Shown here: one piece after another, positions 1 to 26,451 of the stretch
Layout of the letters: each line of letters starts with the position of its first letter
Position numbering within the stretch: the first letter of the stretch is position 1
Source: an uncultured Actinomycetes bacterium
GTDB taxonomy: Bacteria > Actinomycetota > Thermoleophilia > UBA2241
Assembly: GCA_963833555.1 (NCBI GenBank)
Contig: CAWHYB010000002.1
Location: 680,229-744,228 of the forward strand
Direction of reading: 5' to 3'
Length of the DNA: 64,000 nt
Translations under genes and position numbers: made by a program
Notes under the pieces: model-generated
The model's database searches: none
What the model saw: only the letters and a program-made list of their open reading frames with translations
Told to the model about the DNA's origin: nothing

Positions 1-174
1 CGGATCTACGCAGGCAGGCAGAGCGTTTTCTGGCCCGGGGTCTGGCCGGTCAATCCCTTCACCGGCGAACCCCTCCATCCGGGCACAGGCCCCGGCGACT
101 ATCGCTACGTTCGAGTATCGAGCAGTCGTTTCAGACTCATTGTCCTCAACCGCCACGGGAAGCCAATTCACTGA
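1..174 (+). CDS. hypothetical cassette ORF, 5' end outside window
   Basis: Open frame 1 from position 1 to a TGA at 172-174, immediately upstream of attC 181-273. Confidence 0.3.
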   Translation, partial: RIYAGRQSVFWPGVWPVNPFTGEPLHPGTGPGDYRYVRVSSSRFRLIVLNRHGKPIH

Positions 175-180
175 GGGCAC

Positions 181-273
181 ACCTAACAATCGCATCGAGC
201 AGACGCCGCTCCAAGGTATGCTCAGGTTGAAAGGCAAGCGAATGCGGCGCAGCTCATGCGCGTCACGTTAGGG
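181..273 (+). other. attC recombination site (inverse core ACCTAAC ... core GTTAGGG)
   Basis: Consensus structure CCTAACAAtcGCATCgAgCAG ... CtGCGCaTGCGcgtcACGTTAGG; imperfect inverted repeat. Confidence 0.75.
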
Positions 274-504
274 CGACGCGCCGGGCCGGCCGAGACACCG
301 CGAGTATCACCCGATCGTCCGTGGCGGCCGGCCTTGGGAGGACTTGCCGATAAGAGATAGAGGGGTGTGGGTCGCAGCCGCCAGCCCTCTTGCCGTCACG
401 GCACAGATCCGTCCTGCGGTCGTCTTCTGCGACGGCGCAGCGCCGCATCGCAGGGCAGAGTCGCCGCTGGTGGGCGGCGAGACGCGAACGGAACACCCGC
501 GCTG

Positions 505-606
505 CCCTAACAAGCGCGTCAACCTGGCAAACAGAGGCCCCAACGGTGGAGTAAAGTCCACTGGCAGCGCGGCCTCGGTTTGCAGGTTATGCGCGAAACG
601 TTAGGT
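505..606 (+). other. attC site (CCCTAAC ... GTTAGGT)
   Basis: Inverse core matches the core of the preceding attC (GTTAGGG). Inner stems GCGCgTCAACCTG / CAGGTTATGCGCG. Confidence 0.8.
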
Positions 607-613
607 TGAAGTC

Positions 614-1081
614 ATGGCCGAGATCGTAATGACAGACACCGGCTCTTCCGAGCGGGCCATCAGGCGTCCAGGCCGGTTTGCTCCGCTGCAGCTCACCATC
701 GGGGCCGCGGTCGCACTGGCGCTGGCGGTCGGGACAGCAGGTCTCGGCTGGCTGCTTCTCGTGCTGCCCCAGCCGGGTGGATCGGGCCCGTCGGTCAGCG
801 TGTTCCACGCCTACCTCGCGATTGCCTCTGTGTGGCTCGTCGCCGCTCTTGTCGGGGGACTTGGGGCCGTGACGGTCGTCAGGTGGCCGCGCCAGACCGC
901 CTGCGCCGTGGGCCTCGCCGTCGTCGCTGGGATTGCCGTCGTGCCGACCATCGGCCTCCTGCGCGGGCGCGACCTCCTGGTTCCTGAGCTGATGGCGGTT
1001 TGGCTGTTCTCTGCCGTGCCGCTCACGTTCGCAGTCGTTTCCGCTCTGAAGCGGCCCATCACTGACGACAACGGCTGTTGA
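614..1081 (+). CDS. cassette-encoded integral membrane protein (about 4 TM), unknown function
   Basis: ATG at 614, 155 aa, hydrophobic helices, followed directly by attC 1089-1181. Confidence 0.6.
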   Translation: MAEIVMTDTGSSERAIRRPGRFAPLQLTIGAAVALALAVGTAGLGWLLLVLPQPGGSGPSVSVFHAYLAIASVWLVAALVGGLGAVTVVRWPRQTACAVGLAVVAGIAVVPTIGLLRGRDLLVPELMAVWLFSAVPLTFAVVSALKRPITDDNGC

Positions 1082-1088
1082 GGACTCA

Positions 1089-1181
1089 ACCTAACAAGCA
1101 CATCGAGCAGACAGGCCCCGCAGGTATGATGCAGCACGTAAGGGCTGCGATGGCCTGCAGCTCATGTGCGAAACGTTAGGC
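1089..1181 (+). other. attC site (ACCTAAC ... GTTAGGC), subfamily B stems GCACATCGAGCAG / CTGCAGCTCATGTGC
   Basis: Inverse core is complementary to the preceding core GTTAGGT. Compensatory base changes relative to subfamily A attCs. Confidence 0.8.
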
Positions 1182-1201
1182 CGAAGCGGAGGAACGGAGT
1201 C

Positions 1202-1888
1202 GTGTCCCGACTGGAGCCCTCTACACCAGCCGTTCTCGCAGTCGCGATCCTGAGCGCAGTCTTCCTCGCCTCATCCTGCTCGTCCGGGCGACCGACGCCG
1301 TCGCCGGCAGGCCAAGCGGCGTGGGCCTCCTACGGCAACACCCGCGCCGGCTTTGCGGTGCGCTACGACCCGCGGCGGCTCACCGCGCCGACGGAGTCTT
1401 CCTCTGCCAGGAGCATCGCCGTCCGCTTCGTGGCCAATGGCCCGGTCTATCGGGGTCGCTTGACGGCCATCGGGCTCGCCGACCGCAACCAGAAGGATCG
1501 GCTCGGCTCGGCGCTGGGCGGCGTGGAGATCGACGTGTTCCGTGCGTCGCGACCGATCCTGCTTCCTCGGACCGAAGTCCTTCTCAGGGCCAAACGACTT
1601 CTGTTCCTGTCCGAAGTCGCTGCCGTGGGCTCGTCGGGCACGCGAACGGTCGCCCCCGTGCTGATCTCCGGCCTGGCTGGCGTCAAGCTGACGATGGCCT
1701 GGGGCGACCTGCGCGCCGAGGAGTACTGGTTGAGTCGCGGCAACACCTTCTACCGCCTTCAGTTCAGAGCGACGACGGCCGCCTGGCCTGGCATGGCCCC
1801 AATCTACGACGCCCTCGCGAAGTCGTTTCAACTCGAGCCGAAGCTCGGCCTAACAAGCACATGGAGCAGACAGGCCCCGCAGGTATGA
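1202..1888 (+). CDS. cassette-encoded putative lipoprotein (signal peptide ...FLASSC), unknown function
   Basis: GTG at 1202 with GGAGGA Shine-Dalgarno 8 nt upstream. The track ORF 1166.. starts inside the attC, so the downstream start is preferred. 3' end reads about 40 nt into attC 1848-1940. Confidence 0.55.
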   Translation: MSRLEPSTPAVLAVAILSAVFLASSCSSGRPTPSPAGQAAWASYGNTRAGFAVRYDPRRLTAPTESSSARSIAVRFVANGPVYRGRLTAIGLADRNQKDRLGSALGGVEIDVFRASRPILLPRTEVLLRAKRLLFLSEVAAVGSSGTRTVAPVLISGLAGVKLTMAWGDLRAEEYWLSRGNTFYRLQFRATTAAWPGMAPIYDALAKSFQLEPKLGLTSTWSRQAPQV

Positions 1889-1940
1889 TGGGCTTCGGAA
1901 GGGCTGCGATGGCCTGCAGCTCATGTGCGAGACGTTAGGC
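1848..1940 (+). other. attC site (GCCTAAC ... GTTAGGC), subfamily B
   Basis: Same architecture as attC 1089-1181; inverse core is complementary to the preceding core. Confidence 0.8.
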
Positions 1941-1948
1941 GGTTCCGA

Positions 1949-2476
1949 GTGACTGCCACCTCACTGCGACCGGTGTCACCTGGTGATCTCGCGACCATCG
2001 ACGGGTGGGCCGCGGCCCTCGGCGCCGAGGCGCCGTCGCGCACCCGCCCATACGCCGCGGGCGCCGACCGGCACGACTCCGCTTCCGGCCTTTTCTGGAA
2101 CGTGGTGGTCGGCGACGGTCGCGAGGTCGGCACCGTCTGGATCGAGCGTCTCGGCGGGCGACCCGAGGCCCGTCTCGGTGTGTTCCTCGACGACCCGGCC
2201 GACTTCGGGCGCGGCATCGGCCGCTCGGCGCTGCGGCTCGCCATCGCCGAGTATCGCGAGGCGTACCCCGGCGACTCCCTCTCGCTGCACGTGCGTGACT
2301 CCAACGCACGCGCCATCGCCTGTTACCGCGCCGTGGGCTTCGAGATCGTCGACACAGGCTCGAAGGTGCTGCCATCCGGCGAACGCGTCGCGTTCCACAC
2401 CATGGTTCTGGCAGGCCGACCGTCTGCGGCGGACCGCCTAACAAGCACATCGAGCAGACCGGCCCGGCAGGTATGA
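1949..2476 (+). CDS. GNAT family N-acetyltransferase (cassette)
   Basis: Motif GRGIGRSALRLAIAEY (acetyl-CoA-binding Q/RxxGxG/A) and about 175 aa. GTG at 1949 just after the attC core. 3' end overlaps the next attC. Confidence 0.7.
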   Translation: MTATSLRPVSPGDLATIDGWAAALGAEAPSRTRPYAAGADRHDSASGLFWNVVVGDGREVGTVWIERLGGRPEARLGVFLDDPADFGRGIGRSALRLAIAEYREAYPGDSLSLHVRDSNARAIACYRAVGFEIVDTGSKVLPSGERVAFHTMVLAGRPSAADRLTSTSSRPARQV

Positions 2477-2527
2477 TGCGAGTCGAAGGAGCGCGCTGGC
2501 CTGCAGCTCATGTGCGACACGTTCGGC
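2436..2527 (+). other. attC site (GCCTAAC ... variant core GTTCGGC)
   Basis: Subfamily B stems. The variant core is matched by the variant inverse core GCCGAAC of the next attC. Confidence 0.8.
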
Positions 2528-2556
2528 GCACTTGGTTTGAGCGGGGGACGGAGGGC

Positions 2557-3033
2557 GTGACCGTGACCGTGTCGCTGCGCGAGGTCGTCGAGGAGCTCGA
2601 GGCCCTGCCCGACGAGGCGACGCTCTACTTACATCGCGAGACCGGCGAACTCTACGCGCTCGGCGACGAGGAGGCGAGCCTTGTCGAGGACGGCCGGGCC
2701 GAGGAGCTCCCCGACTGGCTGTGCGACGACGTCCCGAGGATCCGCGAGATCCTCACCACGCAGCACTGGCTCATCCTGCCGACTCGCTTCGACGTCCACG
2801 AGTGGGCGATCATGGACGAGTTCGCCCGATCGCTCGAGGACCGGGGCCTCAGCGACGACCTGCGCGCGGCCATCCACGGCCGGGGAGCCTTCCGCGCGTT
2901 CAAGGACGCGGTCCACCGGCGCGGCGCGCATGAGGACTGGTATCGCTTCCGCGACGCAGCAATCACCGACCTCGCCGCTGCCTGGCTCGACGAGCACGGC
3001 ATCGCCTACGCTCGCGATGTGGATGCACCGTGA
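2557..3033 (+). CDS. UPF0158-family protein (cassette)
   Basis: GTG at 2557 after GGACGGAGGG. Motifs LYLHRETGELY, HEWAIMDEF and AIHGRGAFRAFKD resemble the UPF0158 family. Confidence 0.55.
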   Translation: MTVTVSLREVVEELEALPDEATLYLHRETGELYALGDEEASLVEDGRAEELPDWLCDDVPRIREILTTQHWLILPTRFDVHEWAIMDEFARSLEDRGLSDDLRAAIHGRGAFRAFKDAVHRRGAHEDWYRFRDAAITDLAAAWLDEHGIAYARDVDAP

Positions 3034-3043
3034 GGGGGGAGGC

Positions 3044-3136
3044 GCCGAACAAACGCATCAACCTGACAACGCCCGCAGCGGTGCTAGGGTTCGAACCGCA
3101 GCGAAGGCGTTGCAGGTTATGCGCGAAACGTTAGCG
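3044..3136 (+). other. attC site (GCCGAAC ... GTTAGCG), subfamily A
   Basis: Stems GCATCAACCTGACAACGCC ... CGTTGCAGGTTATGCGCG. Confidence 0.8.
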
Positions 3137-3175
3137 CCACCTACCGGAGGGCCAGTGAGAGCAGAGGGGGGAACG

Positions 3176-3674
3176 GTGGCCAAGCCGACATATCACGAAG
3201 GGGACTGGTTTGCCGTGCCGCTTCGCGGCCGGGGGCTATGCGACTGGTCTGCTGGCGCGAGCAAGTCGCAAGGGGATGCCTGTCGGCTACTTCTTCGGTC
3301 CGCGACGAGCCGCCCCAGCTCGTCTCGAGGAACTCAGCGAGCTGAGTGCCGACCAGGCCGTCTGGATCAATAGGTTCGGTGACCTCAGCCTTTCTCGCCG
3401 CACGCCCCCCGACGAGCGCTGGCCGATCATCGGTCGGTTCCCGGACTGGGAGCGTGATCTGTGGCCGATGCCCGTGTTCGGTCGCTATGAGGAGCTTACC
3501 GGGCGCTGGTTTGAAACGTACTACGCGGACCACGATCCAAGCCGACCCAGCGGCCAGAGTCAGGTTGCGCCCGGGCCGGTCGAGCAGTTGCCACGGGAAG
3601 GAATGGCAGGAGCTGGTTACGTGGAGCTGTGGCTCGACCGAGTCCTCGGAGGTGCCGCGGATGCGGGGCGCTAA
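3176..3674 (+). pseudogene. cassette ORF of unknown function, interrupted by a frameshift in a GGCCGGGGG run near 3235
   Basis: Frame X from GTG 3176 (VAKPTYHEGDWFAVPLRG) and frame Y from 3210 (GGYATGLLARASRKGMPVGYFFGP...) join into one protein after a 1-nt correction. The reconstructed 5' end vaguely resembles some polymorphic-toxin immunity proteins. Confidence 0.4.
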
Positions 3675-3761
3675 CAAACGCATCAACCTGACAACGCCTG
3701 CACCGGTGCTAGGGTTCGAGCCGCAGCAGATGCGTTGCAGGTTATGCGCGACACGTTAGAT
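3669..3761 (+). other. attC site (CGCTAAC ... GTTAGAT), subfamily A
   Basis: Inverse core is complementary to the preceding core GTTAGCG. Confidence 0.8.
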
Positions 3762-3838
3762 GCACCGAAGATGAGCCGCTCCGTCACTCCCATGGGGTAA
3801 CATCTGCGGCGCGAGGTGTTGAGGAAGAAGGGAGAAAC

Positions 3839-4051
3839 GTGTCCGTCCTTTTCAGGATCGAGCTTGAGCGAGAGACCGACGGGCGCTGGATCGCCGAGGT
3901 GGTCGAGCTGCCCGGCGTGCTCGCCTACGGCGCGAGCCAGGACGACGCCATCGCTCGCGTGCAGGCGCTCGCTCTGCGCGTGGTCGCCGACCGGCTCGAG
4001 CACGAGGAGGCCGGCCGCGAGTATCTGAACATCTCCTTCGCCGCTGCGTGA
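3839..4051 (+). CDS. hicB: HicB-like (UPF0150) antitoxin
   Basis: 70 aa; RETDGRWIAEVVELPGVLAYGASQDDAIARVQALAL matches the HicB/UPF0150 fold signature. GTG start after AAGGGAG. Confidence 0.6.
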   Translation: MSVLFRIELERETDGRWIAEVVELPGVLAYGASQDDAIARVQALALRVVADRLEHEEAGREYLNISFAAA

Positions 4052-4260
4052 GCGACTGGCCCAGCACCCGCGCCAAGCTCGTCCTCGCCGCCCTGCTGCG
4101 CATCGGCTGGACGGTCGAGCGCCAGACCGGCTCGCACCGCATCCTCTCCCGCCCCGGTTGGCCCGACCTCGTCTTCGCCTTCCACGACCGCGACGAGATC
4201 GGCCCACGCATGCTCGCCCGCATCGCCAAGCACAGCGGACTGCGGCCCGAGGACCTGTGA
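4048..4260 (+). CDS. hicA: HicA/YcfA-like mRNA interferase toxin
   Basis: 70 aa; GWTVERQTGSHRIL...GLRPEDL resembles the YcfA/HicA family. Start overlaps the hicB stop by 4 nt. Confidence 0.55.
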   Translation: MSDWPSTRAKLVLAALLRIGWTVERQTGSHRILSRPGWPDLVFAFHDRDEIGPRMLARIAKHSGLRPEDL

Positions 4261-4271
4261 GCCGGGCACCT

Positions 4272-5378
4272 GAGTTCAAGTTCGAAGTGCAACACCTGCG
4301 CTTCTGACGCTCTCTTCTACCGGGCTTGTGCATAGCACTCCTCCGGGGTCCTGTAGCCCAGTCGCTTGCGTCGGCCGCGCGTTCAGCTTCGCGGCGATCG
4401 CGTCGCAGTCGGCCTGCGTGACGTGCGCCATGCTCGTGCGCTTGGGCAGGTACTGGCGGATCAGCCCGTTGGTGTTCTCGTTGGTGCCCCGCTCCCAGGA
4501 GTGGTGCGGGGTGGCGAAGTAGAAGAGCGCACCGGTCGCCGCCTCGATCTCGGCGTAGCTGTGGAACTCGGTGCCGTTGTCGGCGGTCACGGTGGCGACG
4601 CGGCCCGGGTGCGCGGCGATCAGCTCGATGCAGCGCGCCGTCGCGTCGGCGGCGCGGTGGCGCGCGAGCTTGCCCATGACCGGTAGCCGGTCGCGCGCTC
4701 GACCATGGTCACGACGCTGTTGCGGCCGTGCTCGTTGCCCATGACCGTGTCGATCTCCCAGTGGCCGACGACCTGCGCGCGTCTCGACCTCCGCCGGCCG
4801 CTCCGAGATGTGGCGCTTGCCGGCGAGCCTGCCGCGGGAGTCGTAGGCGCCGTAGCGTTTGCGCCGCTTCTTGCCCGCCTGGCGCATGTGCCTCCACAGC
4901 TTGCCCGCCGGCGCGCTTGTCGCGCCAGACGTGGAGGTAGATCGTCTCGTAGCTGATCGCGAGCAGCTCGTGGCGGGCGCAGCCAGCCGGCGACCTGCTC
5001 GGGGCTCCAGTCGAGGCGCGAGGAGCTGCTCGACCAGCGATCCACTCCTCGGCGCCGAAGTGGCTGTTGCGGCGCGAGCGCCGGCGCCTCGCGCGCGTGC
5101 GCTCGCAGGCGGTGAAGGCGCGGTAGCCGCCGTCGGCGCGGCGGTTGCGCGCGCACCTCGCGCGAGATCGTCGAGGGCGCCCGCCCGAGGTCGCGGGCGA
5201 TGGCCCGCGACGAGAGCCCCTGTCGCCGCAGGGCGGCGATGGCGTATCGTTCTCCCGAGGTGATCTGGTGATACTGCATCTGCGGTTCCCCTTTTCTTGG
5301 CGGATTGGAGGAACCGAAGTGTCCCAGATCGCCTCACCTCTCTCGGGGGGTCGGGTGTTGCGCTTAGTATCTGAATTC
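4272..5378 (-). mobile_element. IS30-family insertion sequence (degraded), inserted between the hicA stop and the cassette's attC
   Basis: Imperfect terminal inverted repeats GAGTTCAAGTTCGAAGTGCAACACC (4272-4296) and reverse complement GAATTCAGATACTAAGCGCAACACC (5354-5378) flank a transposase reading frame. Confidence 0.65.
4276..5279 (-). pseudogene. IS30-family transposase with at least 2 frameshifts
   Basis: N-terminal HTH (YHQITSGERYAIAALRRQGLSSRAIARDLGRAPSTISRE) lies in one frame. C-terminal DDE region (DNGTEF...HHSWERGTNENTNGLIRQYLPK) lies in another frame. Confidence 0.7.
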
Positions 5379-5383
5379 GCCCC

Positions 5384-5476
5384 ACCTAACAAGCGCATCA
5401 ACCTGACAACGCCCGCAGCGCTGCTAGGGTTCAGACCGCAGCGCATGCGTTGCAGGTTATGCGCGAAACGTTAGAG
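5384..5476 (+). other. attC site (ACCTAAC ... GTTAGAG), subfamily A
   Basis: Same structure as the other subfamily A sites. Inverse core is 1 mismatch from the complement of the preceding core GTTAGAT. Confidence 0.75.
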
Positions 5477-5531
5477 CGACGTGCTGGCTTGGGGTCGCTA
5501 GACGGGGACATCTGAACGAACGGGGGGTGCG

Positions 5532-5642
5532 ATGGCGAACGGCAATTGGTCGCAGGCGTCACGAACAGCACTGCTGGTCGTGGCCTTCGGCATCGTCGCA
5601 GTCATCGCCCTCAGTGTCCTGGTTCAAGCGCTCCTGCACTAG
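5532..5642 (+). CDS. 36-aa hydrophobic single-TM peptide in a 280-bp cassette
   Basis: ATG 5532 to TAG 5640-5642 (MANGNWSQASRTALLVVAFGIVAVIALSVLVQALLH). It is the only ORF fitting between two attCs. Below the 60-aa track cutoff. Confidence 0.3.
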   Translation: MANGNWSQASRTALLVVAFGIVAVIALSVLVQALLH

Positions 5643-5669
5643 CTTGGCCGGTGCTCGCATGGGAACGCG

Positions 5670-5756
5670 CCCTAACAAGGCGTTCGAGCAGACTCGCCGA
5701 AGCTCATTGCAGGACCGTGGCGTGAGCGCTCGCTGCTCAACGCCGAAACGTTAGGC
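5670..5756 (+). other. attC site (CCCTAAC ... GTTAGGC), short divergent variant
   Basis: Stems AACAAGGCGTTCGAGCAG / CTGCTCAACGCCGAAACGTT. Confidence 0.7.
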
Positions 5757-5767
5757 AGGGTCAAGCC

Positions 5768-5986
5768 GTGACCGCATGGTTCGACAGGCTCCTTCATCGC
5801 CAGACGCGGAATCCCGAGGAGTACGAAAGAGTTCGCTGCGACCTCTGCAGCGGCACCGGCATCTGGCTCGGGCTCCAGCCGCACAACGCAACCGAGCCCA
5901 ACCCGGTGCACTTCTACAGAGGCGACCACTGCCCCAGGTGCCATGGCGACGGTTGGCTCGAGGTCAAGCGTGAGATCCATGACTAG
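5768..5986 (+). CDS. small Cys-rich (CxxC...CxxC) zinc-ribbon-like protein (cassette)
   Basis: 72 aa with CDLCSGTG and CPRCHGDG pairs. Fills the cassette between two attCs. Confidence 0.5.
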   Translation: MTAWFDRLLHRQTRNPEEYERVRCDLCSGTGIWLGLQPHNATEPNPVHFYRGDHCPRCHGDGWLEVKREIHD

Positions 5987-6025
5987 CGGCATCGGCGCCG
6001 TCGTCGGCCTCGCACCGCACGACCT

Positions 6026-6127
6026 GCCTAACAAGTGCGTCAACCTGACAAACCACGGCCCCGACAGTATGCTCGGGTCGCAAGCGCGCGTGGCCGTGGC
6101 TTGCAGGTTACGCACACCACGTTAGGC
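6026..6127 (+). other. attC site (GCCTAAC ... GTTAGGC)
   Basis: Inverse core is complementary to the preceding core. Confidence 0.8.
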
Positions 6128-6170
6128 GTATCTGTCCAGGCGCCTTGAGGCCGGAACCAGGGGGGGCATC

Positions 6171-6656
6171 GTGGATATCGGCTCGCGACCTTTCACCAGG
6201 TGGGCGCTTGCCATCGCCGGCGTCGTCGGTGTCTGCGTGGCCGGACTGCTTCCCGTGACCCTGACTCAGTACGGCCACCGGATCATCGCGCTGTCGCTCA
6301 CGCGGAGGCTGGGCGACTGGGTCGTCGGCGCTCCTCCGGCCGGACTGACCCTGCTCGTCGCGGGCTTTCTCTGCGCGCTTCTGCTGCTCGTTGCGAGGTG
6401 GCCGGTGAAGGCGTGCGCTGCCGTCGCCCTGGCTTGGTTCGTCTTCGCACAGGCGGCCTTCCGGCCGGACGGCCGCTGGGCTCAAGAGATGGCTCAGACC
6501 TTCGACATGACACGCTTCTATGTCGGCGGGCTCGTGACCATGGCGGTCCTGCTGGCGCTCTCGATCCTTGCGCTGATCACAGCCGTGGTCGCGAGCCCAG
6601 TCCAGGCACGAGGCAAGCCCGCTCCTGCACACGTGGCGCCGACGCCGGATGCTTGA
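6171..6656 (+). CDS. cassette-encoded membrane protein (4-5 TM), unknown function
   Basis: 161 aa, hydrophobic helices, ATG at 6171. Confidence 0.55.
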   Translation: MDIGSRPFTRWALAIAGVVGVCVAGLLPVTLTQYGHRIIALSLTRRLGDWVVGAPPAGLTLLVAGFLCALLLLVARWPVKACAAVALAWFVFAQAAFRPDGRWAQEMAQTFDMTRFYVGGLVTMAVLLALSILALITAVVASPVQARGKPAPAHVAPTPDA

Positions 6657-6674
6657 TCTCGGTAGGCGCAGAAC

Positions 6675-6767
6675 GCCTAACAATCGCATCAACCTGACAA
6701 CGCCCGCGGCGGTGCTAGGGTTCGCAGCGCAGCGCACGCGTTGCAGGTTATGCGCGAAACGTTAGCA
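6675..6767 (+). other. attC site (GCCTAAC ... GTTAGCA); last attC, end of array
   Basis: Subfamily A; no further attC follows, and GC content drops immediately after. Confidence 0.8.
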
Positions 6768-6825
6768 ACATCAGCATGAAGGAAGCCGGTAGTTCTTTTG
6801 GTCCGGCCTGGATGAGAGGGCCTGC

Positions 6826-7115
6826 TTGAGGACTAAGACGATGCTCATCGTCGGCACCGCTGCTGTCTTTGCCCGCCATTGTCGCAGCGCTCGTATTGAG
6901 GCTCGCAGGAAGAGATCGCAAGCGTGGCGAAGGCTTACCGTGTTTATTTTAGAAAAGCGGACGGCGGCTCGGAGGATTACACCGTCGATCATTCGGTATT
7001 CGTTTATCTCATGGACCGGGATGGAAATTACTTAACTCACTTCATGTTCAACACCCCGGCGGAAAACATGGTGAGCGTGATTAAAAAGCGCATTTCCGGC
7101 GATAAAAGCTCCTGA
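6826..7115 (+). pseudogene. sco: SCO1/SenC-family copper chaperone remnant with an internal deletion
   Basis: An N-terminal membrane anchor (MLIVGTAAVFA.AIVAALVLRLAGRDRK, two frames) is joined directly to the C-terminal 70 aa (GSQEEIASVAKAYRVYFRKADGGSEDYTVDHSVFVYLMDRDGNY...). The thioredoxin-like CxxxC core is absent. About 290 nt remain, versus about 600 nt expected. Confidence 0.6.
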
Positions 7116-7263: not shown

Positions 7264-8727
7264 GTGCTCTACCACCTGTATGAGCTGGGCCAGGCGGCCA
7301 TGTCTCCGGCGAGAGCGGTCGCACATTCCACGCGCTTCATTATGCGCAACCCGTTCAACCCGCTATCCTACACCAACGTAGGCCGCAATGCGGCCGCGGC
7401 AGCGGAGCTTCTGGAGCGGACTACGCGCCGCTACAAAAAGCCAACCTTCGGTATCGCGCACACCACTGTAAAGGGCGTGCCGGCCACCGTTACCGAAGAG
7501 ACGGTTTGGCACAGGCCCTTTTGCAATCTGATCCGCTTCCGGAAGCACCTGCAGGACGGAAGCACGCCCAACGAGCCGCGGCTTCTGATCTTCGCGCCGG
7601 TTTCGGGGCACTTCGCCACGCTTCTGCGCGGGACGGTGGAAGCGATGCTTCCCCATGCCGACGTTTACATCACCGACTGGCAGGATGCGCGCTTCGTGCC
7701 CTTGCGCGACGGCAATTTCGACCTCGACGATTACATCGATTACGCAACCGCGATGATGGAGCTATTCGAGGGCGACGTGCATGTGATGGCCGTCTGCCAG
7801 CCTGCGGTCCCGGTCCTCTCCGCGATTGCGCTGATGGAGGCTCGCGAAAGTCCGGCCGTTCCGCGCAGCCTTATCATGAAGGGCGGGCCAATCGATACCC
7901 GCATCAGCCAAACGGCGGTGAACAGGCTCGCCGAGGAAAAGGGCACCAACTGGTTCCGGCGCACGGTAATCACCTCGGTTCCCTGGCCGAATGCCGGGCA
8001 CGGGCGGCTGGTGTATCCTGGCTTCCTCCAGCTTACAGGGTTCATGGTCATGAACCTCGACCGGCATGTGAACGCGCACAAGGATCTGTTCGTCCACCTC
8101 GTCCGGGGCGATGGCGACTCGGCCGATAAACACAAGGTGTTTTACGACGAGTACCTGGCTGTCATGGACCTGGCGGCGGAATATTATCTGCAAACGATCG
8201 ATCAGGTTTTCGTCAAGCATCAGCTTCCGAAGGGCGAGATGTTCCACCGCGGCCAGCCGATCGACCTCGGCGCCATCCGCCGCACCGCGCTCATGACGAT
8301 CGAGGGCGAGAAGGACGACATAACCGGGCTAGGCCAGTGCGAGGCGGCGCTGCACCTCTGCACCAATCTGCCAAACTCCAAGAAGCTGCATTACACGCAA
8401 GAGGGCGTCGGCCACTACGGCATTTTCAACGGCTCGCGCTACCGCAACGAGATCGTCCCCCGCATCGAAGGCTTCATGTCGGATCACGATGTGCGCGGCA
8501 ACGGGCTCCACTGGCTCATGCACAGGCTGGTGGGCGAAAAAAGTGCGGTTGCGGATTCGCCAGAGCCGCTCCAGCACGTGCCTGTCAGCGCAAACGCCAT
8601 GGAGGTTGTGGGAGCAGAGGCGCCGGCGCTGTCGGTGCTTCCCGCGAAGCCGTCGCTGAGGATCGGAAAAAGCCGCTCGCCAGCCCGCCTTCCGAAGCCA
8701 CCCCACGGTAGAAGGCGGCACCGTTAG
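7264..8727 (+). CDS. phaZ: intracellular poly(3-hydroxybutyrate) depolymerase
   Basis: MLYHLYELGQAAMSPAR N-terminus and length typical of intracellular PhaZ. The 3' end runs into a repeat element, so the C-terminus is uncertain. Confidence 0.8.
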   Translation: MLYHLYELGQAAMSPARAVAHSTRFIMRNPFNPLSYTNVGRNAAAAAELLERTTRRYKKPTFGIAHTTVKGVPATVTEETVWHRPFCNLIRFRKHLQDGSTPNEPRLLIFAPVSGHFATLLRGTVEAMLPHADVYITDWQDARFVPLRDGNFDLDDYIDYATAMMELFEGDVHVMAVCQPAVPVLSAIALMEARESPAVPRSLIMKGGPIDTRISQTAVNRLAEEKGTNWFRRTVITSVPWPNAGHGRLVYPGFLQLTGFMVMNLDRHVNAHKDLFVHLVRGDGDSADKHKVFYDEYLAVMDLAAEYYLQTIDQVFVKHQLPKGEMFHRGQPIDLGAIRRTALMTIEGEKDDITGLGQCEAALHLCTNLPNSKKLHYTQEGVGHYGIFNGSRYRNEIVPRIEGFMSDHDVRGNGLHWLMHRLVGEKSAVADSPEPLQHVPVSANAMEVVGAEAPALSVLPAKPSLRIGKSRSPARLPKPPHGRRRHR

Positions 8728-8880
8728 AGGGGCACGAAGAAGACCCCCTCATCCTGTCCTTCTCCCCAGGGGGAGAAGGGACCCGAGAATTGCCCTCTTA
8801 CCTCGGTGAAAGGCCGCAGCCAACTCCCTCTCCCCTTGGGGAGAGGGTTGGGGTGAGGGGGTCTTCTGCCGCTTACCCTG
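8727..8880. repeat. mosaic palindromic intergenic repeat (CCCTCACCC / GGGAGAGGG family), copy 1
   Basis: Nested hairpins CTTCTCCCC..GGGGAGAAG and CCCTCTCCCC..GGGAGAGGG..GGGGTGAGGGGG. Related copies at about 14040, 18125 and 38410. Confidence 0.7.
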
Positions 8881-9647: not shown

Positions 9648-12600
9648 CTAAGAGCATCCAGTCGTACCGCCGCAGGTATCGCACTTCAAACAGGTTCCGT
9701 TGCGAACGAGTGTGAAGTTGCCGCATGTGCCGCAGGCTTCGCCCTCGTAACCCTTCGCGCGCGCTTCAGCGAGAAGCTCAGCCTTTCCAGGCCGTCCACT
9801 CGGAACTGACAGATGGGTTGCAGAAAACGCGGCACTCGCCCCATCGCGCGCGTTTACATCGGAGGACCCTAGCGAAAGACCTTCATCTTCCGCACGCAGG
9901 GCATAAGCGAGGGCGCCGTGACTCTCATATGTATTGGCGCTACCGACTCGCTCAGGCTGACTCTGATCTTGAACTATGACAACTTTGTGGTGAAGTCCGC
10001 GTGTGAGGCCCTTGCTCACCAGGCGGTCGGCCAAGAAAACGGGCGCGGACGCCTTCTGGCCGGGCTTGTCCTCCGCCACGCCGCCGCCCATGATCGTCGA
10101 GCCGATGGCCGAGGGATCGACATGGGCCAGGTCGCTGCGGTCGAGATAGGAGACGGCCAGCTCGCGGAAGATGTAGTCGAGGATCGAGGTTGCGTTCTTG
10201 ATCGCCTCGTTGCCCTGCACCAAGCCGGCAGGCTCGAAGCGGGTGAAGGTGAACGCCTCCACATACTCATCGAGCGGCACGCCATATTGCAGGCCAAGGC
10301 TGATCGCGATGGCGAAATTGTTCATCAAGCTGCGGAAAGCGGCGCCTTCCTTGTGCATGTCGATGAAGATTTCGCCCAGGCGCCCGTCCTCGAACTCGCC
10401 GGTGCGGAGATAGACCTTGTGGCCGCCGACGACCGCCTTCTGGGTGTAGCCCTTGCGGCGGTTCGGCAGCTTCTCGCGCTCGGCGGTGAGCCGCACGCGC
10501 TCGATGATGCGCTCGACGATGCGCTCGGCGACGATCTGGGCGCGCCTGCCCTGGGGTGCCACGGCAATGGCGTCCGCGTCTTCGCCGTCCTCGGAGAGGA
10601 GCTGGGCGGAAAGCGGCTGCGAGAGCTTGGAGCCGTCGCGGTAGAGCGCGTTCGCCTTAAGCCCCAGCTTCCACGACAGCATATAGGCTTCGCGGCATTC
10701 GGCCACCGTCGCCGAATTCGGCATGTTGACGGTCTTGGAGATTGCGCCGGAGATGAAAGGCTGGGCGGCGGCGAGCATGTGGATATGGCTCTTCCAGGAG
10801 AGCGCGCGCTTGCCGCGTTTGCCGCATGGGCTCGCGCAATCGAAGACGGGAAGATGCTCAGGCTTGAGGCCCGGCGCGCCTTCGAGCGTCATCGTTCCGC
10901 AAACGTACTCGTTTGCGGCTTCGATCTCGGCCTTCGAAAAGCCGATTGCCGCAAGCAGGTCGAAGCCCGGCGCGTTCATCGCTTCCGGCGTCAGCTTCAG
11001 GCTCGCGTTGCAGAAATCCTCGCCGAGCGTCCACTTGTTGAACACGAATTTGATGTCGAAAGCGCTGGCAAGGCCCGCCTCGACGCTTGCGATTTTCTCC
11101 GGCGTGAAGCCCTTTGCCGCCAGCGTCTTGTGATTGACGTGCGGCGCATCGGCGAGCGTGCCGCGGCCCACGGCGTAGGTGATGATGGCCGCAATCGTGC
11201 CTTCGCCGTAGCCGAGTGTCCGCAGCGCTTCAGGGACGGCGCGGTTGATGATCTTGAAATAGCCGCCGCCGGCCAGCTTCTTGAACTTCACGAGCGCGAA
11301 ATCGGGCTCGATGCCGGTCGTGTCGCAGTCCATGACGAGCCCGATGGTGCCCGTGGGCGCGATCACCGAGACTTGCGCGTTGCGGAAGCCGTGCGCCTGG
11401 CCGAGCGAGATGACCTCATCCCAGGTCTCGCGCGCGGCGGTGACGAGATCGTCTTGCGGGCAAACGCCATCCTTCAGCGGCACCGGCGCGGTCGAAAGCA
11501 GCTCGTAGCCGTTATCCCGGCCATAGGCCGCGCGCCGGTGGTTTTTCATGACGCGGAGCATGTGTGCCGCGTTCAGGCCGTAGCCGGCAAAGGAGCCAAG
11601 CTCTTTGGCCATCCCCGCCGAGGTGGCATAGGAGACGCCGGTCATCAGCGCGGAAATCGCTGCCGTCAGCGCACGGCCCTTACCCGAGTCGTAGCCGAGG
11701 CCGGACACCATGAGCAGCCCGCCCAGATTAGCGAAGCCCAGGCCCAGCGTGCGGTATTCGTAGGACAACTGCGCGATTTCCTTCGACGGGAATTGCGCCA
11801 TGGTCACGGAGATTTCCAAGACAATCGTCCAGAGCCGGCAGGCATGGGCGAACGCCTTCACGTCGAGAATGCCGCCGCCGCTACGGTCGCGGAACGCCAG
11901 CAGGTTAAGCGAGGCCAGGTTGCAGGCGGTGTCGTCGAGGAACATGTACTCCGAGCAGGGGTTCGAAGCCCGGATCGGTCCGCTCGCGGGGCAGGTGTGC
12001 CAGTCGTTGATGGTGGTGTGGAACTGGATGCCCGGATCGGCGCTGGCCCAAGCCGCCTCGGCGATTTGGTCCATGAGGCCGCGCGCCTTCAAGGTCTTCA
12101 TCGCCTTGCCGCCCATGCGCGCCTTCAGCTCCCAATCGCCGTCCTGTTCAACCGCGTGCAGGAAGGCGTCGTTGACGCGGACGGTGTTGTTGGAGTTCTG
12201 GCCCGCGACCGTGCGATAGGCCTCGCCCTCCCAATCGGTGTCGAAGCCCGGGAAGGCGATGGACTTGAAGCCCTGCCGCGCGAACTGGATGACGCGCTGG
12301 ATGTAATTGTCCGGCACGAAGGCGGCGCGGGCTGCCCTGACCTCGCGCTTGAGCGCCGAATTCTTGGCTGGGGTCGAAGCAATCCTCGCCCTCGCCCTCG
12401 CAATTCACGCACGCCTTCATGATCGCGGTCAGATGCTTCTGGCAAGCCTTCGAGCCCGGCGACCAGCGCCGCGACCTTCTGCTCCTCCAGCACCTTCCAG
12501 CTGATGAAACCCTCGATGTCGGGGTGATCGGCGTCGACGATCACCATCTTGGCGGCGCGCCGGGTGGTGCCGCCGGACTTGATCGCGCCGGCCGCCCGGT

Positions 12601-13384
12601 CGCCGATCTTCAGGAAGCTCATGAGCCCCGAGGATTTGCCGCCGCCCGAAAGCTTCTCGCCCTCGCCGCGCAGCCGGGAGAAGTTCGAGCCCGTGCCCGA
12701 GCCGTATTTGAACAGCCGCGCCTCGCGAACCCACAGGTCCATGATGCCGTTCTCGTTTACGAGATCGTCCTGCACGGACTGGATGAAGCAGGCATGCGGC
12801 TGCGGATGCTCATAGGCGCTGGCGGAGCGGACCAGTTCGCCCGTCTCGAAATCCACGTAATAGTGGCCTTGGCCGGGGCCGTCGATGCCATAGGCCCAAT
12901 GCAGGCCGGTGTTGAACCATTGCGGGCTGTTCGGCGCGGCCATCTGCATGGCGAGCATGTAGCAAAGCTCGTCGTGGAAGGTCTGCGCGTCCTCTTCCGC
13001 CGTGAAGTAGCCGCCCTTCCAGCCCCAATAAGTCCAGGCGCCGGCCATGCGGTCGAAAACCTGCCGCGCGTCCTTCTCTGGGCCAAAGCGCTCGGCTTCG
13101 GGCAGGCCCGCCAGCGCTGCTTTGTCGGGCACGGAACGCCACAGCCAAGACGGAACGCGATTCTCCTCGATGCGCTTCATGCGGGCCGGCACGCCCGCCT
13201 TGCGGAAGTATTTCTGCGCCAGAATGTCGGCTGCAACCTGGCTCCATTGCTCGGGAACGAGAAAGCCCTCAAGCTCGAAGATCAGCTTGCCATCGGGATT
13301 CTTGAGTTCGCTCGTAGCCTCGCGGAACGCGATATCCGCATAGGGAGACTGACCTTTTTTCGTAAAGCGCCGTTCGATCCGCAT
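9648..13384 (-). CDS. nrdJ: class II adenosylcobalamin-dependent ribonucleoside-diphosphate reductase (about 1245 aa), apparently with 2 frameshifts near 12300-12440
   Basis: N-terminus [23 protein letters not shown] 13384 with GGAG Shine-Dalgarno. Regions [30 protein letters not shown] and a C-terminal CxxC tail. Three partial frames (12125-13516, 12148-12420, 9648-12317) cover one protein. Confidence 0.85.
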
Positions 13385-14039: not shown

Positions 14040-14230
14040 AAAAGACCCCCTCACCCCAGCCCTCTCCCGCAGCAAGCTCGCCTTGGCGAGCTTGCCACTT
14101 GAGTAACCCGCATCCGCAAGCGGATGCGGATGGGAGAGGGAGTTGGCTGCGGCCTCGCATCGAGGTGAGAGGATAATTTTGGCGTCCCCTCGCCCCAACG
14201 GGGAGAGGGACAGGGTGAGGGGGCCTTTTA
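14040..14230. repeat. mosaic palindromic intergenic repeat, copy 2
   Basis: CCCTCACCCCAGCCCTCTCCC...GCAAGCTCGCCTTGGCGAGCTTGCC...CATCCGCAAGCGGATGCGGATG...GGGAGAGGGACAGGGTGAGGGGG. Confidence 0.7.
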
Positions 14231-14606: not shown

Positions 14607-14882
14607 ACGAATCTCCTCAAGAGTTGTTCCCTCGGGCGCAAGCCTGCCTGCGTTGTCCGGCAAATCTTTGTCGAAACCCATCGGGTCGCGCATTAAACCG
14701 GCACATTACAAATAGGGGCAAAACGGTAGACTTCGCGCAGGCCGTTGCTGGCTTACGTTCCAATTGCGCTAAAGGTAGAGCACCATCGTCCTGGAGTTAC
14801 CTTGACACTTTAGGCCTTGCCGGCCAAGCAGTTGGCCGGGAGGGCACCGCGAAGGAGCTTCTCACGGGGGCCGGAGACTGAC

Positions 14883-16404
14883 ATGAGCGGCATTGCCACG
14901 AGCTGGGGCGAGAGTTTAAGCAACAAGATCGCGGCCGCGCAATCGTGGCCCGCAAACCGGGTTGCCGCTGGCAGCCTGCTGCTATTCGTTGTTGCCTGGA
15001 CAATGCACGGTGTTATCGCCGGCGCGGGCAGAGCGCTGCACATCGATGTGCTTGAAGCCTATGCCTGGGGAAAAGAATTTCAGCTCGGCTATTATCCGCA
15101 CCCGCCTTTTTGGGCCTGGATCGCGGGCGCATGGTTCCTGGTGTTCCCGGTAAATAATGAGTCGTTTATCCTGCTCGAAGCCATAAACTCCGCCTTGGGC
15201 CTTTGGGGCGCCTGGATGCTGGCCGGGCTTTTCGCGCGGGACTGGACGCGCCACGCCGCGGTTCTCATGCTGCTCGCCACGCCGTTCTACACGGTCATGG
15301 CGTTCAAGTTTAACGCCAACACCATTTTTGTCTCGCTGTGGCCGTGGACGGCGTTCTTTTTCGTGAGATCGCTGGACCGCATGAAGGCGCGCGACGCCGC
15401 CTTATTCGGGGCCTTCGCCGCCGCCTGCATACTCTCGAAATACTACGCCGCGATCCTGCTGATGACCTGCGGCTTATCGCTGTTCTTCCATCCGAATGGG
15501 CGCAAATACGTTTTTTCGCCCCTGCCGTGGATAGCAGCAGCGGTTTTTGCCGCGGCTGTTCTGCCGCATGTTCTATGGGCGCTGAGGAGCGACCTCACGC
15601 CGGCCACCTACGCGGCAGCCAAGACCGGGCAACGGCTGGGCTTACGCGATCGAGCATATGGCGCGCTTCGTCCTCGACAACACGCTCCATTTCGCCGGCC
15701 CGCTGGTCTTGCTTCTAGTGGCTTGGCGAATATCGAAAGCCCGGCCGCTTCATGAACCGGCGGAACGGCCGCAGCAATCGCGGCGGCGCTTCCTTGCCGT
15801 GATCGTGCTGGCGCCTCCTTTGCTGACGATGGTTTTCGCACTGGGCTTCCAGCTCAAGATCGACGCGGACATGGCGGCCGGAATTTTTCCGCTCATGCCG
15901 CTCTTCCTGATGCAATATGTTTCCCCGCTCGACGGCCGGCTCTGCTTCCGGCTGGCGGGGGCGGTGGCGCTCGCCGTAACGGTTGGGTCCGTGCCCGTGG
16001 CTCCCATCGAAGGCGCGGTCCTGGGCAGAAAAAACGTCCTCCCGCAGCGCGAGCTTGCCGCGGCGGTCACCGCCCTCTGGCATGCCGGGACGCATACGCC
16101 GCTCCGCTATGCCGGCGGGCGGTATCTTCACGCCCACGCCATCAATTTCTACAGCGAGGACCATCCATCGAGCTTTATCGAGCTCCAGTACCCGAGATCG
16201 CCTTGGGTAACGCCCGAAAAAATAAAGAAATATGGGCTGCTCATAGCCTGCCTTCACGACGATTCGGAATGTCTCGCCAGGGCGCCGGAGGTTCTATCGG
16301 GGAACTGGAAACAATATTCCATAAGCGTCGGCCGCGTGATCGGAACCCGCCGGCTTCCGGAGGAAGCCTTCGATATCTTCATTATGCCGCCGCAACCCGC
16401 CTAG
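14883..16404 (+). pseudogene. GT39/ArnT-like glycosyltransferase (PMT_2 family), paralog 1, +1 frameshift near 15636
   Basis: About 85% identical to the intact paralog 2. An extra C (CAACGG versus AAAGG) splits the ORF into 14817-15755 and 15658-16404. Confidence 0.7.
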
Positions 16405-16550
16405 CCGCCGGCGCTGGCTTTTCTTGCGCCGTCCAGGCGGGGCTGCTATTGCCCCCCCGGCAGGGGCAGCTTCGCCGATGGTGGATTTCACCCTAGCAGT
16501 TGCGCGAGTAACCCACGGAAGAGCCCCCCACGGAGGGACCGGAGACTGAG

Positions 16551-18086
16551 ATGAGCGGCATTGCGGGGCAAAGCGAAGCCACGAGCTGGGGCGGGGGTTT
16601 AAATAACAAGATCGCGGCCGCGCAATCGTGGCCCGCAAACCGGGTTGCCGCTGGCGGCCTGCTTCTATTCATCGTTGCCTGGACAATGCACGGGGTCATC
16701 GCCGGCGCGGGCGGATCGCTGCATTTCGATGTGCTCGAAGCCTATGCCTGGGGAAAAGAGTTTCAGCTTGGCTACAATCAGCACGGGCCTTTCTGGGCGT
16801 GGATCGCGGGCGCATGGTTCCTCGTTTTCCCAGTAACCAATGCCTCATTCATCTTGCTTGAGGCTATAATCTCCGCTCTGGGCCTCCTCGGCGCCTGGAT
16901 GCTCGCAGGGCTTTTCACCAGGGGCTGGACGCGCCATGCCGCGGTGCTCATGCTCCTCGCGACGCCGCTCTATACCATTATGGCGTTCAAGTATAACGCC
17001 AACACCATCTTCGTCTTACTGTGGCCGTGGACGCTATTCTTTTTCGTGAGGTCGCTGGATCGCATGAACGCGCGCGACGCCGCCTTATTCGGGGCCTTCG
17101 CCGCTCTATGTATACTCTCCAAATACTACGCCGCGATCCTGCTGATGAGCTGCGGCTTATCGCTGTTCTTCCATCCCAATGGACGCAAATACGTTCTTTC
17201 GTCCCTGCCGTGGATCGCAGCGGCGGTCTTTACCGCGCTTGTTCTGCCGCATGTCCTTTGGGCGCTGACGAACGATGCACCGCCAGCCGCCTACGCCATG
17301 AGCCTGACCGGGAAAGGCTGGCTGTTCGCGATCGGGCATGCGGCGAGCTTCGTTCTCGACAATGCGGTTCATTTCGCCGGCGTGCTGGCCTTGCTCTTTC
17401 TGGCTTGGCGGCTATCGAAAGGCCGCCCGGTTCATGAGCCGGCGGAACGGCTGCAGCAATCGCGGCGCCGCTTCCTTGCTGTGCTCGTACTGGCGCCTCT
17501 CCTGCTGACGATCGTTTTCGCAATCGGCTTTCAGCTCAAGATCGAGGCAATCATGGCGGTTGGAATTTTTCCGCTCATGCCGCTCTTTCTGATGCAATTT
17601 GTCTCTCCCCTCGACGCCCAGCTCTGCTTCCGGCTGGCGGCGGCGGTGGCGCTTGCGGTGACGGTTGGGTCTGTGCCGGCGGCTCCGATCGAAAGGGCGG
17701 CCGTGCTCAAAAGGAGCGCTGAGCCGCGGCGGGAGCTTGCAGCGGCGGCCACGGCGCTCTGGCACGCCGAGACTCACATGCCGCTTCGCTATGCCGGTGC
17801 CCGGAACCATTATGCCTTCGCCATGAGTTTCTACAGCGAGGATCATCCATCGAGCTTTGTCGACCTCTCCTACAGGAAGTCGCGTTGGGTGACGCCGGAA
17901 AAAATAAAGAAATATGGGCTGCTCATAGCTTGCGCTCACGAGGATTCGGACTGTCTCGCCAGGGCACAGGAGGTTCTATCGGGGAGCTGGAAACAATATC
18001 CCATAAGCGTTGGCCGCGTGATCGGAGCCCGACGGCTTCCGGAGGAAGCCTTCGATATCTTCATTATGCCGCCGCAGCCGGTCTAG
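16551..18086 (+). CDS. GT39/ArnT-like membrane glycosyltransferase (PMT_2 family), intact paralog 2
   Basis: 511 aa, multi-TM, motif AYAWGKEFQLGYNQHGPFWAWIAGAWF typical of ArnT/PMT-like transferases. Confidence 0.75.
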   Translation: MSGIAGQSEATSWGGGLNNKIAAAQSWPANRVAAGGLLLFIVAWTMHGVIAGAGGSLHFDVLEAYAWGKEFQLGYNQHGPFWAWIAGAWFLVFPVTNASFILLEAIISALGLLGAWMLAGLFTRGWTRHAAVLMLLATPLYTIMAFKYNANTIFVLLWPWTLFFFVRSLDRMNARDAALFGAFAALCILSKYYAAILLMSCGLSLFFHPNGRKYVLSSLPWIAAAVFTALVLPHVLWALTNDAPPAAYAMSLTGKGWLFAIGHAASFVLDNAVHFAGVLALLFLAWRLSKGRPVHEPAERLQQSRRRFLAVLVLAPLLLTIVFAIGFQLKIEAIMAVGIFPLMPLFLMQFVSPLDAQLCFRLAAAVALAVTVGSVPAAPIERAAVLKRSAEPRRELAAAATALWHAETHMPLRYAGARNHYAFAMSFYSEDHPSSFVDLSYRKSRWVTPEKIKKYGLLIACAHEDSDCLARAQEVLSGSWKQYPISVGRVIGARRLPEEAFDIFIMPPQPV

Positions 18087-18124: not shown

Positions 18125-18290
18125 TTACCCCTCACCCCAGCCCTCTCCCCATGGGAGAGGGAGTCCCGCTATGCCCGTTGTTAGGGCGTCCCCTCTCCCC
18201 CATCCGCATTCGCTTGCGAATGCGGACACTCTTAGTTGCAAGCTCGCCAAGGCGAGCTTGCCGAGAGGGACAGGGTGAGGGGTAATGCCC
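18125..18290. repeat. mosaic palindromic intergenic repeat, copy 3
   Basis: Same motif set as copy 2, in rearranged order. Confidence 0.7.
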
Positions 18291-26446: not shown

Positions 26447-26451
26447 GGACG

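Follow-up and report, generated by a model that had tools for sequence, protein, structure and literature searches.

A cassette array with Thermoleophilia affinity, probably misjoined to Rhodomicrobium-like DNA in a metagenome contig

Introduction

Gene cassettes leave integrons as circles through attC x attC recombination and re-enter at attI, next to the gene for the integrase. This enzyme recognises the extrahelical bases of the hairpin into which the bottom strand of an attC site folds, and cuts between the G and the TT of the R' core (G/TT below). Here we analyse an integron cassette array that occupies the left end of a 64,000-nt stretch of contig CAWHYB010000002.1 (positions 680,229 to 744,228; this whole stretch is called the window throughout), in which it directly adjoins alphaproteobacterial DNA.

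The array resembles the sedentary chromosomal integrons (the Vibrio cholerae superintegron, Xanthomonas) in its length, in a content of small cassettes that look promoterless and have no known function, and in carrying a few similar attC sub-types as well as toxin-antitoxin cassettes and insertion sequence (IS) insertions; it differs from them in host phylum and in attC sequence family. The likeness is drawn from established knowledge together with PMC4889954 and PMC5371416, and by this analogy the array would be, functionally, an ordinary cassette array of the sedentary chromosomal type. With class 1 integron cassettes (the aadA attC) it shares the arrangement R''-spacer-L''...L'-spacer-R' and two extrahelical bases 7 positions apart (G16 and T23 in attCaadA7; PMC5027507). 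Unlike class 1 integrons, it lacks resistance genes, a 3' conserved segment and a Tn402 module, and its attC sites are GC-rich and 86-101 nt long. Formally, 11 attC sites and no integrase gene (intI) in 64 kb correspond to the definition of a CALIN (cluster of attC sites lacking an integron-integrase; Cury et al. 2016, PMC4889954), but that status cannot be asserted for an array that leaves the window on the very side where intI is expected.

The position of the array beside alphaproteobacterial DNA is at odds with what surveys have found, as an earlier note on this DNA, written from the sequence alone, had pointed out. No integron, In0 or CALIN was detected in 243 complete alphaproteobacterial genomes, a lack called "extremely puzzling" (PMC4889954), and the class is essentially integron-free in surveys (PMC4889954; bioRxiv 10.1101/2022.02.28.482270). 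For Actinobacteria, too, surveys of isolate genomes have not reported a single complete integron (bioRxiv 10.1101/2022.02.28.482270), and a study of 2026 speaks of a "virtual absence" of integrons in Actinomycetota (PMC13323075). We found no description of Thermoleophilia integrons in the literature searched, and the complete integrons described below in four Thermoleophilia metagenome-assembled genomes (MAGs) are, modestly, a new observation.

Results

The repeats at 181-6767 are integron attC sites

Eleven attC sites, all on the + strand, span positions 181-6767 and enclose ten complete cassettes of 280-1715 bp. These are the numbers proposed in the earlier note, and folds, covariation and a covariance model all bear them out. 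The sites are imperfect palindromes of ~86-101 nt in a single orientation, with an RYYYAAC-like core on the left and a GTTRRRY-like core on the right. All 11 carry ...AAC on the left and GTT... on the right; 12 of the 22 cores match in full the top-strand 7-mer consensus (R'', RYYYAAC; R', GTTRRRY; PMC5027507) and the remaining ones differ from it at 1-2 positions.

From left to right, with scores from a covariance model built on the window, the sites are attC1 (181-273; R'' ACCTAAC, R' GTTAGGG; 95.6 bits), attC2 (505-606; a long variant of 101 nt; fold z-score -5.3; 70.6 bits), attC3 (1089-1181; 101.6 bits), attC4 (1848-1940; 99 bits), attC5 (2436-2527; 86.5 bits), attC6 (3044-3136; R'' GCCGAAC; 94.9 bits), attC7 (3669-3761; 93.1 bits), attC8 (5384-5476; z -6.2; 102.1 bits), attC9 (5670-5756; the most divergent, 59.3 bits), attC10 (6026-6127; another long variant; z -5.6; 79.4 bits) and attC11 (6675-6767; the last site; R' GTTAGCA; 98.2 bits).

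The bottom strand of every site, folded as single-stranded DNA, is predicted to form the canonical attC hairpin, in which an R-box stem of 5-7 bp is followed by an asymmetric spacer without pairing, an L-box stem and a variable terminal loop. Two extrahelical bases on the '' arm, a T and, 6 nt from it, a G, interrupt the L stem. The R box, unpaired spacer and extrahelical bases are the defining features of attC (PMC5027507). Fold z-scores lay between -2 and -6 in 9 of the 11 sites. In the attC alignment 98.2% of cells are paired and 10 of 21 pairs show compensatory double changes, a level reached in 0 of 500 column shuffles, while slid partners pair at 21-38%. Rfam holds no attC family, and no Rfam families or tRNAs were found in the window. 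The covariance model was trained on the window's own attC sites, and is thus circular for the window and independent for other genomes. The model check that the earlier note had suggested was run with it: across the 64 kb, the 11 sites alone score (59-102 bits, the next best hit reaching 12.6 bits), and the family is absent from the other 57 kb.

The sites also carry a crossover signature. The 10 nt that start from the G of R' in one attC are the reverse complement of R'' in the next attC at 90 of 100 positions, against only 66 of 100 when R' and R'' are compared within one attC, so that the complementarity goes with the cassette, as had been claimed. A rare core variant is split across two sites in the same manner: the R' of attC5 (GTTCGG) pairs not with its own R'' but with that of attC6 (CCGAAC). 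We read this match along cassettes as the footprint left by integrase exchange of whole cassettes at G/TT. The repeats are integron attC sites, and 181-6767 is a genuine gene-cassette array.

Could they instead be repetitive extragenic palindromes (REP) or bacterial interspersed mosaic elements (BIME), miniature inverted-repeat transposable elements (MITE) or terminator-like palindromes? As intergenic, imperfect palindromes of ~90-100 nt they have the look of such elements. But their RYYYAAC/GTTRRRY cores, conserved extrahelical bases and unpaired spacer, their one orientation with each copy at the 3' end of a co-oriented open reading frame (ORF), a crossover signature that moves with the cassettes and their restriction to the array all speak against it, and the same family adjoins integron integrases elsewhere (see below). 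The covariance scan, the crossover signature and these integrase-adjoining relatives refute the idea, to which we attach practically no credence; the earlier note had dismissed it too.

The array shares its attC family, cassettes and composition with Thermoleophilia integrons

The distribution of this attC family was surveyed by exact scanning for the L'-R' motif in 185,579 bacterial and archaeal species (one genome each), followed by the covariance model on the matches. The family was found at 13 loci (L004-L008, L010-L016 and L019), all from MAGs named Thermoleophilia or 'uncultured Actinomycetes' (for example MFD01299.bin.2.115, MFD04492.bin.1.108, MFD04716.bin.2.196 and SRP302447_co3_62). 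Their sites score 50-94 bits, with up to 17 per 8-kb locus, and some of the contigs are 0.1-1.28 Mb long. The sole exception outside this group is a 5-kb contig labelled Deltaproteobacteria with two weaker sites (38.5 and 25.8 bits). An array of the family was confirmed in no alphaproteobacterial genome among the species representatives. Five single motif matches (Jannaschia, Pandoraea, Terriglobales, Eremiobacterota and Clostridia), of which the Jannaschia MAG is alphaproteobacterial, contain no attC by the covariance model and were discarded as chance. In MAG MFD04492.bin.1.108, more than 40 attC sites are spread over three contigs.

In four of the Thermoleophilia/'Actinomycetes' MAGs, intI lies directly upstream of the array and is co-oriented with it. 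The gene is full-length in L019 (482-1435; TIGR02249 477.6 bits, cut-off 265) and in L006 (2220-3209, - strand; 471.5 bits, same cut-off), a frameshifted copy in L007 (4-1059; 335 bits) and partial in L008 (3-626), where it is cut by the locus end. This co-orientation, an 'inverted integrase', sets these relatives apart from the V. cholerae/Xanthomonas type, where intI is divergent. The window, unlike them, has no IntI-like ORF in its whole 64 kb (best tblastn E value 2.5), and its array ends in alphaproteobacterial DNA; the orientation of the attC sites would place the integrase gene left of position 1.

The likeness extends to cassettes. The hicBA cassette of the window is 84% identical in nucleotides to a cassette of an Actinomycetes MAG (L004), its GNAT acetyltransferase 56% identical in amino acids to a cassette ORF of Thermoleophilia (L011), and its IS30-family element 85% identical in nucleotides to an intact copy in the Thermoleophilia integron locus L019, equally placed relative to attC. 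The 90% cluster to which its HicB belongs includes a 'HicB family antitoxin [Thermoleophilia bacterium]'. Orphans without a counterpart in the fetched Thermoleophilia loci make up most of the window's cassettes. Among 72,556 plasmids there was no similar array, and the only matches were to the IS30 transposase core.

Composition points the same way. With its attC sites masked, the array correlates in tetranucleotide usage at 0.94-0.97 with Thermoleophilia DNA, non-array DNA included, and at 0.863 with the remainder of the window; chunks of 6.9 kb from that remainder intercorrelate at 0.92-0.98. Between 5 and 7 kb the log-likelihood ratio of k-mers switches sign, and the k-mer comparison of the two halves proposed in the earlier note thus sets them apart. 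GC content is 67.3% in the array and 61.6% in the rest of the window, lower on both sides than the ~70% and ~63% first estimated. Altogether, an attC family, cassettes and an IS in common with intI-adjoining Thermoleophilia arrays would, on sequence grounds, make this array one of Thermoleophilia type.

The array ends bluntly inside sco1/senC

By both composition and homology, the foreign segment ends between positions 6898 and 6899 (6898/6899), 131 bp past the last attC; the earlier note had placed the boundary at ~6770. From 6899 onward the DNA is Rhodomicrobium-like (Hyphomicrobiales). Twelve Rhodomicrobium-like assemblies were compared, five at 82-96% nucleotide identity and seven conspecifics from different samples at 97.7-98.9%, and homology to all of them begins at 6899/6900, at codon ~130 of sco1/senC. 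The local order in these relatives is regA-regB / sco1 (200 aa) / phaZ / hypothetical / nrdJ, and 7 of the 7 conspecific assemblies have sco1 intact (200 aa), with regB and regA after it. The window retains a 3' remnant of sco1 (6899-7115, + strand; residues 130-200 of 200; PF02630 positions 99-133/134), which is annotated on the source contig as a protein of 63 aa; the 5' half of the gene and regB-regA are absent. Counting the window, the junction is unique among eight conspecific assemblies.

These comparisons bear directly on whether the array is a native, long-resident chromosomal integron of an alphaproteobacterial lineage, the 'rare integron' of the earlier note. It is true that the array directly adjoins Rhodomicrobium-like DNA in the contig. 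Yet conspecifics at 98-99% identity have sco1-regB-regA at this place, the attC family, cassettes and IS are common to Thermoleophilia integrons, the composition is unlike that of the host, the array ends in a truncated housekeeping gene and there is no intI in the window. Residency would show as the same locus in close relatives or as host DNA on both sides; the relatives have sco1 there, and one flank is visible. We therefore abandon the rare-integron reading, in view of the Thermoleophilia affinity, the intact locus of the seven conspecifics and the mid-gene join: a native integron is very improbable, and the finding is weak evidence for any alphaproteobacterial integron.

The 131 bp between attC11 and the junction (6768-6898, + strand; 57% GC) form a tail of unknown origin, with a GAGGA motif and then an ATG at 6841 that opens a hydrophobic N-terminus (MLIVGTAAVFA...). 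Neither the 34 fetched loci nor the rest of the window contain a match to it, and exact scans of Joint Genome Institute (JGI) metagenomes found neither the attC11/tail junction nor the tail. The best reading is that an 11th cassette begins here and is cut off by the join.

At the junction itself microhomology is at most 1 nt, and no IS end, inverted repeat or GTT is present at 6898/6899. The expected integrase break, the G/TT of attC11, lies 137 nt to the left; because there is no G/TT at the actual break, the junction is not the product of integrase-mediated recombination between attC and attI or attG. IntI-mediated insertion of cassettes at genomic attG sites was reportedly described by Loot and colleagues in 2024, and it would likewise put cassettes into a genome without an integron. 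That route, however, predicts a junction exactly at the G/TT of the terminal attC, and was rejected because the break falls elsewhere. A shared repeat was likewise rejected as the cause of the join: the IS of the array does not occur in the alphaproteobacterial part, and an IS in a conspecific assembly is at most distantly related to it (76% over 82 nt). The latter is an IS30-family insertion (L029:16738-17700, on a 1.22-Mb contig) between SBP_bac_3 and MFS genes, ~4 kb from sco1.

The join is present in the deposited contig and is probably an assembly chimera

Exact look-ups show that one deposited contig of 759,312 nt (NCBI/ENA) carries both array proteins (HicA, HicB, the zinc ribbon, both membrane proteins and the lipoprotein) and alphaproteobacterial proteins (PhaZ, D-lactate dehydrogenase and the 63-aa Sco1 remnant). 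The join is therefore a feature of the public assembly itself and no product of the windowing. The other alternative of the earlier note, a chimeric window, is the better of its two in substance, with the correction that the chimera would lie in the 759-kb contig.

The assembly has other marks of its origin. The essential gene nrdJ (9651-13384, - strand), encoding a class II ribonucleotide reductase of 1274 aa in relatives, shows two +1 homopolymer insertions relative to them at 12364-12456 (GGG to GGGG, and CCC-G to CCCGG), as seen in noisy long-read metagenome assemblies; these are probably sequencing or assembly errors. In conspecific assemblies L027 and L028 nrdJ is similarly fragmented. 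One long-read style of record name (MFD..., contig_N; ERZ250395xx) is common to the closest Thermoleophilia MAGs and the conspecific alphaproteobacterial contigs.

One explanation of the join is biological: a Rhodomicrobium-like strain would very recently have gained at least 6.9 kb of a Thermoleophilia array, disrupting sco1/senC, through illegitimate recombination or as part of an unseen larger element, and would carry a CALIN if intI did not come along. The presence of both halves on one deposited contig, a polished consensus with mostly intact ORFs in the array, the lack of adapter at the join, the existence of CALINs (PMC4889954) and of cassettes away from integrons, and the few integrons now reported in Alphaproteobacteria (bioRxiv 10.1101/2022.02.28.482270) are all compatible with such an event. 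But the array is missing from the seven conspecific assemblies and confirmed in no alphaproteobacterium of the species survey; its composition is that of unameliorated Thermoleophilia DNA; the break, mid-gene and well past attC11, shows none of the marks of an integrase, an IS or a repeat; and sco1 would be inactivated and parted from regBA. We consider a biological junction unlikely, and hold in slightly lower esteem still the full scenario in which a soil Rhodomicrobium-like alphaproteobacterium very recently took a multi-cassette Thermoleophilia integron segment into sco1/senC. If true, that scenario would mean that a whole cassette array had crossed between phyla, into a class long known for having no integrons.

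Instead, we infer that the join is artefactual, and that a real Thermoleophilia cassette array has probably been misjoined to a Rhodomicrobium-like contig. We favour such a chimera because the join is a blunt, inter-phylum one inside a conserved gene and unique among eight conspecific assemblies, and because it shows no mobile-element or site-specific signature and leaves the donor composition unameliorated. The segment 1-6898 is a true part of a cassette array, with ten complete, co-oriented and mostly single-gene cassettes, each ended by an attC, and a partial cassette at either end. Its type is that of the chromosomal integrons of soil Thermoleophilia (Actinomycetota), which have a co-oriented intI upstream, and it is not resident in the Rhodomicrobium-like chromosome represented by 6899-64000. 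On the chimera account, the blunt join inside sco1/senC would have been made within the 759-kb contig of an error-prone long-read metagenome assembly.

Several points weigh against a chimera. No sequencing-adapter remnant was found at the junction, where adapter alignments scored no better than null. The cassette ORFs are mostly intact, and the array is therefore a polished consensus of many reads rather than one raw chimeric read. Most chimeric reads are filtered out by long-read assemblers, so that blunt joins between genomes are uncommon. The array may stand at a contig end or have Thermoleophilia DNA upstream, and the hosts of the reference arrays are taken from MAG record titles and one protein name.

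Cassette contents

Nine of the ten cassettes hold co-oriented + strand ORFs, whose ends overlap R'' or lie 8-48 nt ahead of it; one cassette has no convincing ORF and one holds hicBA plus an IS. Cargo was identified by Pfam and NCBIfam family searches, which detected no resistance gene among the cassette ORFs, and PADLOC recognised no known defence system among the cassette proteins. The cargo described in the earlier note (a GNAT, a UPF0158 protein, HicA and HicB, a zinc ribbon, membrane proteins and a lipoprotein-like ORF) was found, the UPF0158 assignment being borderline; a degraded IS30-family element and an Imm26-like ORF had gone unmentioned.

At the left edge of the window, the array opens with the 3' end of a further cassette (1-180, + strand), in which reading frame 1 runs on as far as a TGA at 172-174, leaving 6 nt to the R'' core of attC1. 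The fragment has no family match, and there is no record of a protein that contains it or of any of the edge-partial proteins conceivable at this end (three + strand frames, six - strand starts). The body of cassette 1 (274-504, + strand) is the one without a convincing ORF. Cassette 2 (ORF 614-1081, + strand) encodes a 155-aa hydrophobic membrane protein of no known family, whose exact sequence occurs on the deposited contig only, and cassette 3 (1202-1888, + strand) a 228-aa lipoprotein-like orphan whose sole database match is itself, on the source contig. Cassette 4 (1949-2476, + strand) encodes the GNAT acetyltransferase (PF00583, 33.7 bits). The 158-aa product of cassette 5 (2557-3033, + strand) is UPF0158-like, at 20.9 bits to PF03682 against a cut-off of 21.1.

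The ORF of cassette 6 (3175-3674, + strand) is Imm26-like, with a similarly borderline match to PF15428 (21.9 bits against a cut-off of 23.3). A GTG at 3175 opens one frame (VAKPTYHEGDWFAVPLRGRG...) and the long ORF (3210-3674) is in another, the shift lying near 3232; it may be either a pseudogene or another indel error.

Cassette 7 carries hicB (3839-4051) and hicA (4048-4260), a toxin-antitoxin pair on the + strand. HicA matches PF07927 at 49.7 bits and is overlapped by 4 nt by the upstream 70-aa ORF. The latter has no direct Pfam or NCBIfam match for HicB and was assigned through its 90% cluster, named HicB family antitoxin. A HicA domain together with an adjacent, overlapping HicB gene would, as far as sequence goes, qualify the pair as a HicAB type II toxin-antitoxin system, and the cassette probably stabilises the array.

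In the same cassette lies the degraded IS30-family element (4266-5380, - strand), frameshifted in at least 3 places, with imperfect terminal repeats of ~28 nt as read by eye. The family was assigned from the intact L019 copy, which has IS30-type domains (HTH_38, 57.2 bits; rve, 29.7 bits and below its cut-off of 32.6), and from plasmid-database matches of the array IS that are annotated as IS30 family. The same element thus occurs in two unlike cassettes, after hicA in the window and after an unrelated 216-aa ORF in L019 (4285-5396), and each time ~6 nt separate its right end from the R'' core of the attC that follows in that cassette. Such a position suggests insertion targeted to the attC boundary, as with the IS1111-attC elements of a different family.

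The last three cassettes, all with + strand ORFs, encode a 36-aa hydrophobic peptide (cassette 8, 5532-5642), a zinc-ribbon-like protein of 72 aa with two CxxC pairs and sub-threshold family matches only (cassette 9, 5768-5986), and a 161-aa membrane protein of no known family (cassette 10, 6171-6656).

The alphaproteobacterial flank

The first intact gene after the junction encodes an intracellular polyhydroxybutyrate (PHB) depolymerase, PhaZ (7264-8727, + strand), that is 96% identical to a JGI protein and 89% to a protein named 'MAG: Rhodomicrobium sp.'. Genes for DNA polymerase I, an extracytoplasmic function (ECF) sigma factor and a PhyK-like kinase lie downstream. The Rhizobiales-like neighbourhood recognised in the earlier note is confirmed as alphaproteobacterial and, by its PHB depolymerase, ECF sigma factor and PhyK-like kinase, as Rhodomicrobium-like.

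Other features of this part were noted in passing. A ~100-130-nt intergenic repeat, unrelated to attC, occurs at 8738-8867, 14046-14229 and 18128-18282; it is also found at several intergenic places in the Rhodomicrobium-like loci compared, sometimes inverted. Tandem PMT_2 glycosyltransferase paralogues (14817-18086) share ~84-85% nucleotide identity, and one of them is seemingly split into two ORFs (14817-15755 and 15658-16404). A 744-aa ORF (24871-27105) combines DUF3419 (BtaA-like) with an S-adenosylmethionine methyltransferase (BtaB-like), and may be a betaine-lipid synthase fusion, or else the ORF call has run two genes together. Two large ORFs for multihaem c-type cytochromes (47641-51009, - strand) give weak, sub-cut-off matches to DmsE/MtrA-family decahaem proteins. 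This cytochrome stretch has a strong GC skew (+0.12 to +0.16) and is the only region of the alphaproteobacterial part whose k-mer score leans slightly to the Thermoleophilia training set.

Discussion

Taken at face value, the window would add an integron array to the Alphaproteobacteria, and the evidence says that it should not be counted. A single blunt misjoin of this kind can mislead surveys of integron host range that are based on MAGs, and the array serves as a warning about assigning hosts from MAG contigs.

The array is at the same time a specimen of an under-described family of Actinomycetota integrons. Thermoleophilia MAGs contain complete integrons, in which a full-length IntI stands beside long arrays of similar attC sites. 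Thermoleophilia may hold an untapped pool of sedentary integrons, and deserve a proper survey.

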